Shown in pieces: positions 416 to 20,773 of a stretch of 24,000 nucleotides of DNA. The position numbers and the translations under genes were made by a program. The stretch's first letter is position 1; every line of letters starts with the position of its first letter. Location: NCBI RefSeq assembly GCF_964283195.1, contig NZ_CAXYLH010000016.1; one strand, given 5' to 3'. The DNA is from Olsenella uli DSM 7084. GTDB lineage: Bacteria; Actinomycetota; Coriobacteriia; Coriobacteriales; Atopobiaceae. The notes below the pieces were generated by a model that saw only the letters and a program-made list of their open reading frames with translations, had not been told where the DNA came from and made no database searches.

Positions 416-768
416 TAAGCGCGTTTGCTACCACGCCATTCCAGTCCATTCCAGTTGTGTCATCGTTTCTAGTTGCCCTGCCGCCGAATCCCGCCACGTG
501 CCGCCGCGTGGGCGTTTGGGACAAAACGTGGGACAAAACCGAAAACTATTTCGAAACCACGAGCCCGCAGTTTCATTTTTGTCCCGGGGACAAAAACGGG
601 TCGGTTTTGAGGCTTGGAGAAGCCCGAAACGGATGCCAAAACGACTGATTTTCCTCTTTGGCACCTGTTTGGTGATGTGAATCGTAGCCAGCGGCTTTAT
701 TGCTTTGCATTTCCGCAGGTCAAGATGGGTAGGCAACATTTATGACTGGAAGAATCGTCGCAGGCGGC
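416..768. repeat. Conserved noncoding island arm, copy A
   Basis: Aligns block by block with 11147-11490. Shared blocks include the tandem CCATTCCAGT pair (about 445-468), GCCGCCGAATCCC, GGGACAAAA at 518-526 and 530-538 (12-bp phase), and the perfect palindrome TTTTTGTCCCGGGGACAAAAA (576-596). Further shared blocks are GATGCCAAAA, CCTCTTTGGCACCTG..GAATCGTAGCCAGCGGCTTT, GCATTTCCGCAGGTCA and GAAGAATCGTCGCAGGC.GCTT. Indels between the copies break every reading frame. Confidence 0.8.
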
Positions 769-4057: not shown

Positions 4058-7000
4058 CTATGCGTGGCGCCTGGCGAGCATCAACGCGGCAACAACGATG
4101 ATGCCTCCGGCGATTCCCAAACTCGCGACGGTGGTGAGCGTGTGATCGCCCGTGGCGGGGAGCTTGGATGCGGCGCCTGCCGTGGTGGTGACGGTCGCAG
4201 TGGCACTATTGCCGTCGCCGGGACCCGCAGGATTTGGCGTTGGGTCCGGCTCTACGGCGTCAGCGACGTTGAACGTCCACCACCCAAAAACGCTTTCGTA
4301 GTTGCGCGCGTCGCTGGGCGTGTACTGCGCCAAGAAGCGATAGCCACCCGTTGCCGTGAGCGCGGTTTCGGGGGCAACCCAGGTCCAGGTGCCCTTATCG
4401 TCTGCCGGGAGCTGCTGGTCACCGAGCTTGAGGCCGTTGGTGAGCGTCAGGTCGGGAAGCGTTGTCACCTGGGGCGTGGGGACGGCGCGGTAGATGTCGT
4501 AGAGGGCGACGACGCTGCCGGCGGCGTACTCGTCAGTCTCGGCAACCTCGAAGAGCACGGCGTAGTGACCAGCGTTGACGGGGGCAGCGTCCAGCTTGGT
4601 GAAGCCGTCGTCCTCGACCTCGAAATAGGTGAGGGTGCCGCTTGCGGTCAAGGCGGTGTTCGTGGCGCTGTCGCGAACCTCGGTCGTGACGTTCGCCGGC
4701 ATGCCGTCGTAAACCTTGGACGTTGCGTCGACGGTCAGCGCGAGCTCGGGCTTTCCGGGCGTGGGGTCAGGGCTGGGATCGGTGCCGTCGACAACGTTGA
4801 AGCTGAGCATGCGTGCCGTGCGGAGGTAGTTCCGCGTGTCGGTGGGCGTGTAGATGGCGAGTCCGCTCTCAGTGCCGGCACCCGTGATGGCGCGCGAGCC
4901 ATCGGCCCAGCTCCAGGATCCCTTGGGGTCGTCGGGAATGGCCTCGTCCGCGAAGGTCAGGCCGTCGCGCAACTCGAGGTTGCCGAGCTGGGGCGTATCG
5001 GGGTTGGGCGTCGCCCGGTAGATGCTGAACGATGCCGTGACGGGCTCGGCGGTGTAGTTGGCCGGGGTGTCGGCTGAAAGCTCGGCCAGGTAGGTGCCTG
5101 CGTTGGTAGGAGCCTCCTCGAGCTTGGTGAGCACGCCGTCGACGACCTCGTAGTAGGTGAGCGTGCCGAGGTCATTGAGCTCGTTACCCGTTATGGGGTC
5201 AACGACCGACCAGGCGGCAGCGACGGGCGCGCCGTCATAGGTCTTGGACGCCACGTCGAGCGTGAGCGCAAGCGGCGTCACCTCTACCGTAAGCGTGCCG
5301 GGGATCACGGTGATGCCACTCTGGTAATTGACCTCGCCGGCATCCGTCAGCTGTGCGTTTGCGACGGTGATAGCGTCTGCGTATGTGCCTACGGCGAGGT
5401 CGGCGTAGGACGTCACGGCGTTTCCCGTGTCCTGGGAAAGCTTCTGGAAGTCGAGCGCGGCTGCAATCGGCTGGATAACGCTGTCGGCAGCCTCGCCCTC
5501 GACGAGTCCCTCGACCGTAAAGACGTATCCGGGCTCGGTCCCGTGCCAGGTGCCCGTGGCATCGGCTACGCGCAGCGTGGGTGCCGCATGCTTGGCGATG
5601 GTGAACGTGCACGAGGCCTCGTCGGCGAGGTAGTTGTGCGTATCGGTCACGCGGAGCACGGCCTCATAGCTACCTGCGTTCTTGGGCGCAGCAGTGCGAA
5701 GATCCTCGGTGCGCTCGTCGCCATCGCGCAGGTAGTAGTTGACCTCGTATCTGGCGTTAACCTTCTTGCCGGTGGCATTGGTGATATCCACCGCGGCCTC
5801 AACGGGTTTGCCGTCGTAGGTCTTATCCGCAACCGCGATGGTGCCCGTGACCCTAGCCTGCTCGATGGTCAGCGTGCCCGGCACCACCTTGATGTCGGAG
5901 CTGTAGTTGTTGGCACCCTTCTCGCTCAGCTGCGGGTTTGCAACGGTGATGGCATCTTCGTACTTCCCTGCGTCGAGGGCGCTGTAGTCGAGCCCGGAAC
6001 CGAGCGCGGCGGCCGTGCCCTGCACGAAAACGTCCTCGGCTTTGTCGTTGCCGACAAGACCGCTCACCTCAAACGAGTAGGCGGGCTCGGTCTCGCCATA
6101 GACAACACTCGCGTCTGCGACGGTGATGGTGGGCGCCGCAGCCTTGGTGATAGCGAAGTCGCAGCGGGCCTCGCACGCTTTGTAGTTGGTACGGGCAGGT
6201 ACGTTTATGACAACCACATAGCTGCCGGCATCGACGGGCGCCTCACCGAGCGGTTCGAGCTCGCCGTTGTTGTTGCGGTAATAGCTCAGGCTGTAGGTGC
6301 TGTCGAGCTTCTCGCCGGTGTTCGGGTTAGTGATCGAGCAGGTGACCTCGACGGGCGTCCCGTCATAGGTCTTGCCTGTGGCGGCTACGGCGGCCGCAGG
6401 CGTCGCCGGAGAGACGGTGAGCGTGCCCGCATTGACGAAGACGCTGTTCTTATAGTTGGCGCCTGCGCCCTTGTTGAGCTTCGGGTTCTTGACGGTGATG
6501 GCAGACGGATAGACGCCGACATCAAGATCCTGGTAGCCCTTATTGCCCGTGATGCTCTGGTCGAGCTCGGCCTTGGTGTCCCCGGCGAGGACGTCCTTGC
6601 CCTCGTCGGCGTCGGCCAGGCCGGAGACGGTATAGGTGTAGTCGGGCTCGCTGCCGCTCCAGGTGCCTTCGGCGTCACTTACGGTGATGGTGGGGGGCGG
6701 GGCCTGGTCGATCACGAAGCGCGTAGAGGCCTCGCCACCCAGGTATTTATCGGTGCTCTCGACCGTCCATACCACCTCGTAGCCACCGGCAGGGCTGGGG
6801 TTACCCCACCAAGGGTCGTCCCTATCGTCGTTTTTCTTGATCGCGTAGTACTTGAGCCTGCCTGTGACCTCGACAGGCTCGCCGGTCCCGGCATCGACGG
6901 CAGTTGTCGTGACAAGGGAGTCGCTATAGGGGTTGCCGTCGTAGGTCGTGTCCTCAGCCGTAATGCTCAGCTTGAGCCGCTTGCGTTCGGCGGGCTCATT

Positions 7001-7723
7001 CTTATAGACCTCAAATCTGAGGTAGCGGTACACAGTGGCATAGTTGACCGTGTCCTTGGGCGTGAACATGGCGAGTGCGACGACAACATCGGGGCCGTCT
7101 TTGGAGTCGTCACTGGAGTTGTCACTGGAGCCGTCATCGGGGTCGTGGATCTTCTGGTTTGCGACACGCCTTGTCCATGACCAAGTTCCATCCTCGGGGT
7201 TTGTCGCCTCGGTTTGTTCCGGGAAGGGCTCCTCGGAAGCCCTGAGGCCCTCGCGGAACTTGATGGGCTCAAGCGCGGGCGACTCGGGGTTGGGGATGGC
7301 GCGGTAGATGCGCACGTCCTGCGAGACGCTTCCGCCCAGGTAGTTGTCGGTATCGGGCACGGTGTAGGTCACACGGTACGTGCCGGCGTTCACAGGCGCT
7401 TTCTCGAGCGTCTTCTCGCCGGCATTGGTGACCTCAACGTAGGACAGGCTGCCCTTGACATCCACGGTATCGCCCGTCGCGGGGTCGATCGCTTTGCATA
7501 CGGGCTTAAGCTCTTCGCCGTCGTAGATCTTGTTGCTGACGTTGAGAGAGAGCGTGAGCTGCGTCTGGGCACTAAGGCCACGGCATGCCGCTTCGTCCGC
7601 ACGGGCGTTTGTTGGCGGCGTGGCCACAAAGAGTGCTGCCGAGAGCGCCGCGATGGAGCAGAGCATAAGGGACAGTTTTGCCCATGATCTTCGAGGCCTC
7701 GGGGTGGTAAGCAGGCGTTTCAC
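4058..7723 (-). CDS. Cell-wall-anchored (LPXTG) giant adhesin built of MBG-type repeats
   Basis: 1221 aa. GTG start with an AAAGGAG RBS 7 nt upstream. The signal peptide is ...LSLMLCSIAALSAALFVATPPTNARA. Many modules have the ..K.YDG.P......G.L.Y......AP.NAG.Y motif. Three modules begin AAPT(I/L).V.DA.G.W.G.EP.Y.F.V.GL. The C-terminus is LPATG followed by a hydrophobic helix and RRHA. Confidence 0.92.
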   Translation of the reverse strand: MKRLLTTPRPRRSWAKLSLMLCSIAALSAALFVATPPTNARADEAACRGLSAQTQLTLSLNVSNKIYDGEELKPVCKAIDPATGDTVDVKGSLSYVEVTNAGEKTLEKAPVNAGTYRVTYTVPDTDNYLGGSVSQDVRIYRAIPNPESPALEPIKFREGLRASEEPFPEQTEATNPEDGTWSWTRRVANQKIHDPDDGSSDNSSDDSKDGPDVVVALAMFTPKDTVNYATVYRYLRFEVYKNEPAERKRLKLSITAEDTTYDGNPYSDSLVTTTAVDAGTGEPVEVTGRLKYYAIKKNDDRDDPWWGNPSPAGGYEVVWTVESTDKYLGGEASTRFVIDQAPPPTITVSDAEGTWSGSEPDYTYTVSGLADADEGKDVLAGDTKAELDQSITGNKGYQDLDVGVYPSAITVKNPKLNKGAGANYKNSVFVNAGTLTVSPATPAAAVAATGKTYDGTPVEVTCSITNPNTGEKLDSTYSLSYYRNNNGELEPLGEAPVDAGSYVVVINVPARTNYKACEARCDFAITKAAAPTITVADASVVYGETEPAYSFEVSGLVGNDKAEDVFVQGTAAALGSGLDYSALDAGKYEDAITVANPQLSEKGANNYSSDIKVVPGTLTIEQARVTGTIAVADKTYDGKPVEAAVDITNATGKKVNARYEVNYYLRDGDERTEDLRTAAPKNAGSYEAVLRVTDTHNYLADEASCTFTIAKHAAPTLRVADATGTWHGTEPGYVFTVEGLVEGEAADSVIQPIAAALDFQKLSQDTGNAVTSYADLAVGTYADAITVANAQLTDAGEVNYQSGITVIPGTLTVEVTPLALTLDVASKTYDGAPVAAAWSVVDPITGNELNDLGTLTYYEVVDGVLTKLEEAPTNAGTYLAELSADTPANYTAEPVTASFSIYRATPNPDTPQLGNLELRDGLTFADEAIPDDPKGSWSWADGSRAITGAGTESGLAIYTPTDTRNYLRTARMLSFNVVDGTDPSPDPTPGKPELALTVDATSKVYDGMPANVTTEVRDSATNTALTASGTLTYFEVEDDGFTKLDAAPVNAGHYAVLFEVAETDEYAAGSVVALYDIYRAVPTPQVTTLPDLTLTNGLKLGDQQLPADDKGTWTWVAPETALTATGGYRFLAQYTPSDARNYESVFGWWTFNVADAVEPDPTPNPAGPGDGNSATATVTTTAGAASKLPATGDHTLTTVASLGIAGGIIVVAALMLARRHA

Positions 7724-7860
7724 GGAGCAGCTCCTTTATCACAAATTGCCCTGGCGTCATTTGAGCGGTCCGCCGGGACAGCGCCTGATGATACTGGCGC
7801 TTTTTTGCACGTCATCCATCATCAAGTACATTACCATATATTGGTTAATTATCGTTGTTT

Positions 7861-7909
7861 TTGCGTCCGTGAGAAGATAGGTTCGTCCCGTCTTATGTCG
7901 TTTCGTCCC
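7861..7909 (-). promoter_or_regulatory. Three direct repeats with 20-bp phasing upstream of the adhesin gene (candidate LytTR operator)
   Basis: The plus strand reads TTGCGTCCG (7861-7869), GTTCGTCCC (7881-7889) and TTTCGTCCC (7901-7909). In minus sense, the proximal repeat is followed after ~20 nt by TATATGgTAATGT, which is -10-like. Confidence 0.45.
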
Positions 7910-7954
7910 AAATAGTAAGAAGAATGAATTCTCTCTATCAGCGTGGGCCAATGG

Positions 7955-8755
7955 CTAGCGGTCGGCCGCCCCTTCGTACCCAAAATACAGCGCAAGGGCG
8001 CGGTCGGCGTCGGGGCTGCTGCGCGTGTAGTTGATGTTTTTGATGTCAAACAGGATGCAGCCGCAATGGCCCGTAATGGTCGGGAAGCAGACGACCTTGA
8101 GGTATGTATCGATCTCGGGGCTGTAATCGATAAGCTCGAGCGTCTCGCCCCAGAGCGCCGCTCGCTCGTAGCAACGGAGCCACTTGGCGTCCATGTTGGG
8201 AAAGATGCTGCCGAACGAGTGGCCGATAAGCCGGTCGAGCGGCACCTTCTCGAGCCGTGCAAGGGCGTCGTTGCCGTATCGAAACACCCAGTCCACCGCC
8301 TGGCGTTGCCCGTCGAGGACCATTTCGATATCGGTAAAGGCAAAGGGCATGTCATCGAAGCTCGCGTAGCGAGCGTGATAGTCCTCGAGGGCGGCGGAGG
8401 CATCTCGCTGCTCGCGGTCTTCGATAACCGACGCGCGCCAGGCTTGCAGCTCCTCGCGGAGCTGGCGCTTGCGTCGCACGGTATATTCGAGGCTCTCGCC
8501 GTTGATGAGGTTGACGGTATCGGTGATGTCGTGGATGGCGCGCGCCGAAACCAGACAGCTGCGATGCACGAGCAAAAAGCCACTGCCTAAGATTTCGCGC
8601 AGCTCACGTAGCGTGACGCGGATATCGTAGAGCTCCCCGTCGATCATATGGACAAACGCATCGTTGCGTTTCATCTGGACGTACAGGACGCGCGTGGCAT
8701 CAAGCACGTAGTCCTTTTTGCCCGATGTGATTGTGACGGCTTTGCTGGCGTGCAT
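7955..8755 (-). CDS. One-component transcriptional regulator: N-terminal LytTR DNA-binding domain plus C-terminal PAS-like sensor
   Basis: I call the start at ATG 8755 (MHASKAVTI...), preceded by GGAGGgtct; the longer 355-aa track ORF has an implausible Arg/Pro-rich N-terminus. LYVQMKRNDAFVHMIDGELYDIRVTLRELREILGSGFLLVHRSCLVSARAI is a LytTR signature. FAFTDIEMVLD....VFRYGNDALARLEKVPLDRLIGHSFGSIFP...YERAALWGETLELIDYSPEIDTYLKVVCFP...GCILFDI is PAS-like. Confidence 0.8.
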   Translation of the reverse strand: MHASKAVTITSGKKDYVLDATRVLYVQMKRNDAFVHMIDGELYDIRVTLRELREILGSGFLLVHRSCLVSARAIHDITDTVNLINGESLEYTVRRKRQLREELQAWRASVIEDREQRDASAALEDYHARYASFDDMPFAFTDIEMVLDGQRQAVDWVFRYGNDALARLEKVPLDRLIGHSFGSIFPNMDAKWLRCYERAALWGETLELIDYSPEIDTYLKVVCFPTITGHCGCILFDIKNINYTRSSPDADRALALYFGYEGAADR

Positions 8756-9080
8756 AGACCCTCCGCGACGCAATGTGCTCTTTCTTCGATTGTAGGCGGA
8801 CGCAGGGTTTCCTTTCGGATTATTCCGTTCAAACCGATGGTTTGCCGTCCTTGTGGCAGGATGCGTAAGGAGCTGGTTGGCGATCGCATGTGCCGGATAA
8901 CGTGCGGGGGCATCGGCGATGGCGTGCGTTGGTCTCGGTCGCTGAGAGCGGCGACCCCTGGGGTTTGCGGATAGGGGCTGATGGGGGCACCATTCAAAAT
9001 GGCGGCAGAAACAACCCGCCACGAGAATGGAATAAAGCTTCGGGTCTCAATAGGAACCCTATTAAGAAAGGCGGGAAGCA

Positions 9081-10949: not shown

Positions 10950-10957
10950 CGAGGTTA

Positions 10958-11146
10958 GGGAGTAAAACGACAAAGAAAAAGCCTCCGTCCCAACGCGGGG
11001 ACGGAGGCTCGATTGCCGTGTTTACTCACCGATGCCGCAGGTGGCTTTGCCGTGAGTCGCGTACGAAACGAAACTCAGCGGTACACCACGGCACTCGAAA
11101 GTGCAGGTCAAAGCCCTGTCGGCCCACTCCTACTCCTTCACACTCG
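10958..11146. repeat. Island P-segment copy B plus a scrambled guaA-end core
   Basis: 10958-11122 aligns with 15842-16007 and 20594-20760. All three start at GGGAGTAAAAC and contain the invariant CCGCTGAGTTTCGTTTCGTA (minus sense). The core region 11123-11146 reads CCCACTCCTACTCCTTCACACTCG in place of CTAYTCCCACTCG. Confidence 0.8.
10971..11008 (-). terminator. Rho-independent terminator inside P-segment B
   Basis: GCCTCCGTCCC (10981-10991) / GGGACGGAGGC (10998-11008). On the minus strand it is followed by TTTTTCTTTG (10980-10971). Confidence 0.7.
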
Positions 11147-11490
11147 TTTACCGTGGCGTCATTCCAGTTAACTCCAGTTGGGTCGTCGGTCTTGTCCGTC
11201 TTGCCGCCGAATCCCTCCGCGTGTCCTCACGTAGGCGATTGGGACAAACCCTGGGACAAATCCGCGAACCATTTCGAAACCGCGAGCCGCAGTTTCGTTT
11301 TTGTCCCGGGGACAAAAACGGAAATGTTTTGAGGCGCATAATCACCCGAAGTGGATGCCAAAAGGGCGATTATCCTCTTTGGCACCTGATTGGCGAAGCG
11401 AATCGTAGCCAGCGGCTTTGCCACCTAGCATTTCCGCAGGTCAGATGGGATGCACAAGAGCGATGACTGAAAGAATCGTCGCAGGCAGCT
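11147..11490. repeat. Conserved noncoding island arm, copy B
   Basis: Collinear with 416-768. GGGACAAA occurs at 11241-11248 and 11253-11260, and the identical 21-bp palindrome is at 11298-11318. Confidence 0.8.
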
Positions 11491-15547: not shown

Positions 15548-15841
15548 GAACCGCTCGAACGATTGCGCGAGCTAACCCCCCGATTACTCTCTTTTCCCTG
15601 AGATGGCGAGATTCTTTACTCCCCATTAACCACCTGGGAAAACGCCGTACGGAGACCGCCGAAAAGCCCATTGAGTTCGATTTGAGTTTCACGGGCCTCG
15701 AAGCGGCCCCGTCTCGCCCTCGGGGACAAAAACAGCGCGTCCACTCACTCGGGATAAATCCTTACTCCCATTCCCCCGAGTACCACCCCGTGCCTTGCCG
15801 TCTTGAAATGCGGGGAGTAAATGGCGAAATCGCAGGTGAAA

Positions 15842-16020
15842 GGGAGTAAAACGGCAAAGAAAAAGCCTCCGTCCCAACGCGGGGGCGGAGGCTCGGTTGC
15901 CGCATTTACTCACCGATGCCGCTGGTGGCTTTGCCGTGAGTCGCATACGAAACGAAACTCAGCGGTACGCCACGGCACTCAAAAGCGCAGGTCGAAGCCC
16001 TGTCGGCCTATTCCCACTCG
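15842..16020. repeat. Island P-segment copy C plus guaA-end core copy C
   Basis: Aligns with 10958-11146 and 20594-20773. In minus sense the core reads ACC GAG TGG GAA TAG (T-E-W-E-stop) at 16020-16006. Confidence 0.8.
15855..15892 (-). terminator. Rho-independent terminator inside P-segment C
   Basis: GCCTCCGTCCC (15865-15875) / GGGGCGGAGGC (15882-15892, one G-U pair). On the minus strand it is followed by TTTTTCTTTG. Confidence 0.7.
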
Positions 16021-20593: not shown

Positions 20594-20773
20594 GGGAGTA
20601 AAACGGCAAAGAAAGAGCCTCCGTCCCAACGCAGGGAACGGAGGCTCTTTAATCGCTTTTACTCATCTCCGTCGCTGGTGGCTTTGTCATGACTCTCGTA
20701 CGAAACGAAACTCAGCGGCACAGTGCGGCACTCAAAATCGCAGGTCAGAACCCTATCGGCCTACTCCCACTCG
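20594..20773. repeat. Island P-segment copy D plus the true guaA end (attR-like junction); it now forms the guaA 3'UTR
   Basis: Aligns with 10958-11146 and 15842-16020. It starts at GGGAGTAAAAC (20594-20604) and ends in CTACTCCCACTCG (20761-20773), which is the stop plus E-W-E codons of guaA. Confidence 0.8.
20607..20645 (-). terminator. Rho-independent terminator currently serving guaA
   Basis: GCCTCCGTCCC (20617-20627) / GGGAACGGAGGC (20634-20645, one bulged A). On the minus strand it is followed by TCTTTCTTTG. Confidence 0.7.

Follow-up and report, generated by a model that had tools for sequence, protein, structure and literature searches.

A receiver-less LytTR-PAS regulator and its candidate operator in front of a giant adhesin gene of Olsenella uli DSM 7084

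Receiver-less regulators in which a LytTR DNA-binding domain is fused to a sensor are already known, as are the stand-alone LytTR proteins of the LRS type. RcoM-1 and RcoM-2 of Paraburkholderia xenovorans are single-component carbon monoxide (CO) sensors built of heme-PAS and LytTR domains, which are homodimeric and use phased imperfect direct repeats with 12-13-bp spacers, that is, with a period of ~20-21 bp, upstream of their target (PMC9670170, PMC11347149). CoxC of Afipia carboxidovorans is a one-component MHYT-LytTR repressor with three direct repeats overlapping the -35 hexamer (PMC11347149), and the receiver-less LRS regulators of Streptococcus mutans (HdrRM, BrsRM) have direct repeats 11-13 bp apart, 4-11 bp upstream of the -35 (PMC6193735). 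More generally, LytTR activators of the AgrA and LRS types are associated with 9-bp repeats separated by 10-13-bp spacers and located 4-11 bp from the -35 (PMC6193735, PMC11347149). The subject of the present analysis is a 24,000-nucleotide stretch of the genome of Olsenella uli DSM 7084 (contig NZ_CAXYLH010000016.1; referred to below, at its full length, as the window), which carries the gene of a receiver-less LytTR-PAS regulator, the gene of a giant surface adhesin and, between the two, a set of short phased repeats.

The regulator shares with RcoM the combination of a PAS and a LytTR domain in a single receiver-less polypeptide, the comparison being one of layout and not of sequence relationship. 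In RcoM, however, the PAS domain is N-terminal and LytTR C-terminal, whereas here LytTR (residues 16-103) comes first and PAS (residues ~130-245) follows; moreover, the PAS domain is cysteine-rich (C223, H230, C231, C233), the associated gene codes for a surface adhesin and not for CO oxidation, and the hosts are Gram-positive gut anaerobes. CoxC is likewise a one-component LytTR regulator, but has an N-terminal membrane MHYT sensor, another repeat sequence and another target. With AgrA, ComE and PlnC the regulator has in common the LytTR fold, and 32 of 72 loci of its relatives in Clostridia have paired direct repeats with a 9-bp core, 21 bp apart, just upstream of the -35; it differs from them in having neither a receiver nor a cognate kinase, in the N-terminal position of LytTR, and in that the units of its own clade are inverted and 20 bp apart. 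The LRS regulators, receiver-less as well, are small, co-transcribed with a membrane inhibitor and activate their own operon, whereas in the present case a PAS domain is fused to LytTR, an adhesin gene lies downstream and no operator is found upstream of the regulator. The published repeats of RcoM and CoxC (TTCNNGCA, TTNNNGCN) also differ in sequence from the operator described below.

The regulator gene (7955..8755, minus strand, stop codon included) encodes, by translation, a protein of 266 amino acids. Residues 16-103 (8447..8710, minus strand) match the Pfam LytTR family PF04397 with 37.5 bits at a cut-off of 22.6, and with 40 bits in a genome scan. No match to Response_reg (REC) was found by Pfam in the regulator or in six homologues, and neither HisKA nor HATPase domains occur among the open reading frames (ORFs) of the window, in agreement with the original prediction of a protein with no receiver and no kinase nearby. 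An AlphaFold2 model built from 91 sequences, which replaced a model from 15 sequences with a predicted local distance difference test score (pLDDT) of 30-40 in the PAS half, reached a mean pLDDT of 79.8, the LytTR half scoring ~90 and the C-terminal one 52-89. By Foldseek, the N-terminal half of this model was superimposed on the AgrA LytTR structures 4xqj, 3bs1 and 4g4k with target TM-scores of 0.79-0.81 and root mean square deviations of 1.8-2.4 Å, and was also paired with the LytTR domain of ComE; the N-terminal domain has the all-beta fold of AgrA. A long helix (residues 93-118), by which the two halves are joined in the model, probably dimerises the protein.

The assignment of the C-terminal half (8021..8368, minus strand) required more than a profile match, as the PAS_4 match at residues 156-205 is sub-threshold (18.6 bits against a cut-off of 23.1), no NCBIfam model fits the regulator, and the only PDB match to the family profile in a sequence search was a weak one for LytTR (3d6w, E 0.1), with none in the PAS half. 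In the model, strands at residues 139-144, 155-159, 206-212, 217-225 and 230-237, with helices between them, follow the secondary-structure order of PAS domains, and the structural matches of this half, whose pLDDT is 52-89, included the PAS domains 2r78, 3fg8, 3fc7 and PYP. A hybrid histidine kinase of the same genus has an N-terminal domain that shares 44% identity (E 1.4e-27) with this half and is assigned to PAS_4 by Pfam with a score above the cut-off; homologous PAS domains in kinases exceed that cut-off with 28.1 and 38.1 bits. A search of the full library with the PAS region yielded 2513 relatives, many of which stand at the N-terminus, or in several copies, in kinases and GGDEF proteins and are assigned to PAS_4 or PAS_9. 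On the basis of the fold order and structural matches, the kinase-domain homology and the full-library relatives, the C-terminal half is a PAS domain. The protein thus has the one-component layout in the order LytTR(N)-PAS(C) that had been predicted, and is probably a cytoplasmic transcription factor. Across the 91 family members, the residues C223, H230, C231 and C233 (C-x6-H-C-G-C) are invariant or nearly so; hybrid kinases and GGDEF proteins from anaerobes have the cysteines in their homologous PAS domains as well, with Y or F in the place of H230. Such a cluster hints at a redox site or at the binding of a metal or cofactor.

The next gene on the same strand is that of the adhesin (4058..7723, minus strand), a 1221-amino-acid, LPXTG-anchored surface protein with MBG repeats (Pfam MBG_3, MBG_2, MBG and Gram_pos_anchor; TIGR01167) and a signal-peptide-like N-terminus. 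No gene for an LRS-type membrane inhibitor follows the regulator, either here or in the relatives. The two genes are arranged in series and separated by an AT-richer gap of 231 bp (7724-7954), in which the three predicted 9-bp direct repeats, TTGCGTCCG at 7861, GTTCGTCCC at 7881 and TTTCGTCCC at 7901, were indeed located at exact 20-bp spacing. When the intergenic region was shuffled with a Markov model, 5 of 2000 shuffles contained three equally spaced repeats (18-23 bp) that agreed in 6 of 9 columns, whereas a pair as good as the best one (8 of 9 columns) was reached in 221 of 2000, so that the triple is unusual while the pair alone is not. Comparison across genomes provides much stronger evidence against chance than the window sequence taken by itself. 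Of the 405 loci encoding a relative of the regulator, 80 were kept.

Within Coriobacteriia, the intergenic regions of six lineages, whose regulators share 71-98% protein identity, could be aligned. In the sense of the adhesin gene, the block ATTTGGGACGAAACGACATA is invariant in all of them, bar one substitution in L017 (from ATCC 25986); it corresponds to unit A (7895..7909, plus strand; full unit ATGTCGTTTCGTCCC), which includes the third of the repeats (TTTCGTCCC at 7901-7909) and is inverted relative to the adhesin gene. Located 20 bp beyond it is unit B (7875..7889, plus strand; core GTTCGTCCC at 7881-7889), a degenerate copy sharing 10 of 13 core positions with unit A, of which G(G/T)GACGAAC (minus sense) is invariant in all six lineages while the flanks diverge. 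The remaining repeat, unit C (7861..7869, plus strand; TTGCGTCCG, or CGGACGCAA in adhesin sense), varies: some lineages retain GAC(G/A)CA, which has disappeared from the 71% lineage (L009-L012). The original description of a 9-bp triple thus holds as far as the phasing is concerned, but the unit is rather one of ~13-15 nt, of which only A is a full copy, B is degenerate and C, a doubtful third site, is not conserved.

The intergenic DNA of the Clostridia loci cannot be aligned with that of the window, yet a count of k-mers still picks out ATGTCGTTT, which is the reverse complement of the invariant unit A block. In these genomes the TTGAAA-N17-TATAAT promoter of a large surface-protein gene is closely preceded by two units of the form ATGTCG(T/A)TT, spaced by exactly 21 bp, and the pair is followed by 6-7 nt, TTGA(A/C)A, ~17 nt and TATAAT. 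In the 76 Clostridia loci, the 27 kb that directly follow the regulator genes contain 27 exact GTCG[TA]TT pairs, all on the target strand and all with 21-bp spacing; in the remaining 491 kb, 8 such pairs have that spacing and 1 has a spacing of 31 bp. This geometry corresponds to the canonical LytTR layout, with the operator in the classical activator position. Of the 72 Clostridia loci with enough flanking sequence, forward pairs occur at 32, a single forward unit at 11 and an inverted unit alone at 4. The product of the downstream gene is usually large, secreted or associated with the cell wall, and contains GLUG, YDG, F5/8-C, CUB, FG-GAP or SLH domains; at some loci the genes of two 170-210-amino-acid proteins without a Pfam match come first. 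In the Coriobacteriia relatives the downstream gene is always that of a giant MBG-type surface protein homologous to the adhesin of the window (37-39% identity over the repeats, E 1e-58).

A 17-column matrix was trained on the Clostridia loci only, with none from Coriobacteriia. Unit A (24.3 bits at 7894-7910) ranks first among its matches, whether the window or the entire 2.24-Mb genome is scanned; the probability that the 231-bp gap would contain a score this high by chance does not exceed ~2e-5 (460 positions x 2^-24.3). In all 14 Coriobacteriia loci a single inverted match lies 22-45 nt past the stop codon of the regulator. The second-best match of the genome (22.0 bits, C10:47568) was rejected as a second target, being located inside the coding sequence of a phosphotransferase system EIIB component, and matches at 10958, 15842 and 20594 (17.2, 10.5 and 10.5 bits), which fall at the start of 179-nt repeats containing the end of guaA, were rejected as single, weak and at chance level for 48 kb. 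The regulator appears to have one obvious target in this genome. The operator occurs in the variants GTCGATTCGTCCC and GTCGTTTTnnGCC. The motif accompanies the regulator family across two phyla, and phased repeats are present in homologous regulator-adhesin pairs, both of which support the prediction that the repeats constitute an operator fronting the adhesin gene.

An inverted arrangement is also seen in a clade of Oscillospiraceae, where a full inverted unit is followed by 20 nt and TATTAT, with a partial unit 20 bp upstream; for comparison, unit B of the window is followed by 21 nt and GATAAT. Inverted operators abutting a -10-only promoter therefore recur in separate clades. Derivation of the Coriobacteriia layout from that of the Oscillospiraceae was rejected, the two being separate clades in the regulator tree, which is midpoint-rooted only. 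In an Oscillospiraceae clade (L065, L067 and L077) an inverted half-unit, GGGACGAAA, falls within the 17 nt that separate TTGAAA from TATAAT in a promoter ~190-230 nt past the regulator stop codon, in a position resembling that of unit C in the window; the stretch from the inverted to the forward units of these loci is spanned by a long inverted repeat (CTGCCGTGTTCAC...GTGAACACGGCAG followed by TTTT). At one further locus (L046) a pair of units with 21-bp spacing lies in reverse orientation ~210-230 nt upstream of the regulator, facing a divergent gene of 537 amino acids. In this case the operator goes with the target gene and not with the regulator.

As for the promoter of the adhesin gene, the original prediction of TATATG/TAATGT as the -10 was not upheld, neither being conserved as a hexamer. 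The invariant hexamer amid variable flanks in the six lineages is GATAAT (7853..7848, minus strand), and a consensus scan places a weak -35, TTCTCA (7875..7870, minus strand), 16 nt upstream of it (TTCTCA-16-GATAAT). Transcription is accordingly predicted to start ~7 nt downstream of GATAAT, near 7841 on the minus strand. With a start at ~7841, unit A would extend from -68 to -54, unit B from -48 to -34, abutting the weak -35, and unit C from -28 to -14, within the spacer. The predicted 5' leader of ~118 nt (7724..7841, minus strand) contains two conserved stems, for which RNAalifold gave 24 pairs across the six lineages, 3 of them with compensatory changes, and includes an AAGGAG ribosome-binding site that is invariant in the six lineages together with the region of the start codon. 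The stems are formed by TGATGG...CCATCA around a short GC stem and by CCCCGG...CCGGGG; the inner stem resembles a terminator on the plus strand (a hairpin with TTTTTT), in this strain only. An Rfam search of 7650-8000 left the leader unmatched.

Taken together, these data make it probable that the protein is a local one-component regulator of the adhesin promoter, acting through units A and B. In the mechanism proposed here, which we infer from sequence and from the modelled folds, the N-terminal LytTR domain would bind DNA, the helix 93-118 would dimerise the protein, and the cysteine-rich C-terminal PAS domain would receive the signal; the regulator would occupy units A (7895-7909) and B (7875-7889), just downstream of its own stop codon, and thereby control the promoter with the -10 GATAAT. 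The direction of control is most likely activation by recruitment of RNA polymerase, because unit B abuts a weak -35, and activation is further favoured because the majority layout of the family is the classical activator position.

Several observations weigh against this interpretation. Within 350 bp of the regulator stop codon no match was found at 25 of the 72 Clostridia loci, several of which have pairs 0.5-3.6 kb downstream instead. In the window itself unit B scores only -0.9 bits with the matrix. The operator of the Coriobacteriia is inverted and spaced by 20 bp, as opposed to the canonical 21 bp of Clostridia, and hence the geometry of activation would not be a textbook one. Since no terminator was found between the two genes, read-through from the regulator gene could feed the adhesin gene as well. 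Finally, CoxC provides the example of a LytTR regulator with repeats over the -35 that is a repressor (PMC11347149).

Repression after the manner of CoxC is the alternative to be considered first: units A, B and C would cover the -35 and the spacer and block RNA polymerase until the regulator is released on binding of a signal by the PAS domain. The statistically unusual 20-bp-spaced triple, the positions of unit C between the -35 and -10 and of unit B against the -35, the use of direct-repeat triplets by both RcoM and CoxC, and the Oscillospiraceae half-unit GGGACGAAA in the spacer of TTGAAA-N17-TATAAT would all fit such a mode of action. However, unit C scores -6.7 bits, is absent in L009-L012 and degenerate in others; the pairs of the Clostridia majority end 6-7 nt upstream of the -35, which is the classical activator position (PMC6193735), and the weak -35 of the window suits a need for activation. 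Repression is regarded as rather unlikely.

A second alternative takes into account that unit A, read on the plus strand, has the orientation in which the Clostridia units precede their promoters, and that the CCCAAA following it resembles those promoters. The inverted operator might then serve the plus strand, either by driving antisense transcription that enters the regulator gene from its 3' end or by controlling read-through as a roadblock or by termination, a role that would have its place given the lack of a terminator between the genes. A plus-strand promoter after unit A was nevertheless rejected, as TAAGAA stands in place of TTGAAA, no -10 follows at the expected distance and the promoter scan was negative; besides, the stretch after unit A is not conserved in L009, whereas the minus-strand GATAAT is invariant. 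A plus-strand role is accordingly considered very improbable.

The promoter of the regulator gene and the repeated arms of the surrounding island had likewise been proposed as binding sites. A likely -10 of the regulator promoter, TACAAT (8789..8794, minus strand), is retained in five aligned lineages and also found in L009, but the adjacent CGGACGCA (8797..8804, plus strand), the proposed autoregulatory site, is not supported: although it is found at the predicted position, as are TACAAT, the three repeats and the gap, the CGTCC beside TACAAT is replaced in relatives by GCACCC, GTGCCC or GCGCCC. No matrix match of 9 bits or more, such as positive autoregulation would entail, occurs upstream of the regulator in any Coriobacteriia locus. 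As to the island arms, the predicted GGGACAAAA sites do exist there, but their membership in the same half-site family as the operator is not supported, the arms having no ATGTCG core and no matrix match of 8 bits or more. By base composition, 7.5 copies of GGGACAAAA would be expected in the genome, which has 37, of them 27 outside the window; GGGACGAAA is present 7 times against 14.5 expected. The two words behave as different families. Ten GGGACAAAA copies were recorded in the repeated arms of the window (518-596, 11241-11318, 13969, 15723, 16126 and 16186), and these partly form a perfect palindrome, TTTTTGTCCCGGGGACAAAAA; arm palindromes lie at ~576-596 and ~11298-11318.

That the repeats are not bound by this regulator at all, being due to chance or belonging to another factor while the regulator acts elsewhere, e.g. 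on the island arms, is the least probable alternative and hardly credible: two further LytTR-domain ORFs in the genome and a mild enrichment in the window of the 8-mer TTCGTCCC with one mismatch (36 against 25 expected) could be cited for it, but the motif accompanies the regulator gene in different phyla, in intergenic DNA that has nothing else in common, its best genome-wide match adjoins that gene, and the arms lack a matrix match of 8 bits or more, their word GGGACAAAA being over-represented in the genome independently.

The interpretation of the protein as a local regulator of the adhesin promoter is to be viewed against the distribution of its family. The organism stands close to Parafannyhessea umbonata, under whose name a 98% identical protein of 266 amino acids is on record, and more than 1828 clusters (at 90% identity) match the regulator at E <= 0.001, most of them comprising proteins of 262-300 amino acids from gut Clostridia with 54-60% identity. 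The 405 stretches encoding a relative were found in a species-level collection of 185,579 species genomes; by contrast, of 201 sampled genomes of the window's own taxonomic family, only this one has the full-length gene. In the tree, which is rooted at the midpoint only, the regulator groups with proteins of Collinsella (88-89% identity) in a Coriobacteriia clade with a support of 100/100, separate from 73 Clostridia rows. Members of 390-460 amino acids (P0010-P0016, P0021, P0023 and others) contain two LytTR stretches ahead of PAS, and such a single chain might read both units of the operator.

In a second strain of P. umbonata (L013/L014), SUKH genes, the regulator and the adhesin are located directly beside guaA without intervening segments, whereas in the window further repeat-bounded segments separate guaA from the regulator-adhesin module. 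Three copies of a 179-nt repeat (10957-11135, 15841-16019 and 20594-20772) include the 3' end of guaA and bound the successive segments. This layout is consistent with serial insertion of islands at guaA. Regulator, operator and adhesin would thus constitute a self-contained module on a guaA-associated island, and the distribution of the family, the tree and the placement at guaA, taken together, point to a module that is horizontally mobile.

No paper on this LytTR-PAS family was found in the literature. New with respect to the systems outlined at the beginning are the reversed domain order, the cysteine-rich PAS subfamily, the different operator and the consistent pairing with giant surface proteins. 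The list of sensor-fused one-component LytTR regulators represented by RcoM and CoxC is thereby extended to Gram-positive anaerobes, and a family is obtained with a defined operator of 13-15 nt, apparently usable in two orientations, with a predictable promoter layout, a sensor domain with invariant cysteines and a histidine, and, in this organism, a single expected genomic target. The family may thus bear on the timing of adhesin display in gut commensals, Collinsella, Parafannyhessea, Roseburia, Ruminococcus and Faecousia among them. It may tentatively be proposed, though with considerable reserve, that this large family (>1800 clusters, 405 loci) provides dedicated local switches for giant surface proteins in gut Clostridia and Coriobacteriia, that its cysteine-rich PAS domain senses redox state, oxygen, a metal or a heme-bound gas, and that the display of adhesins would in this way be tied to the redox gradient of the gut, with the cassette moving between genera as one self-regulated module.

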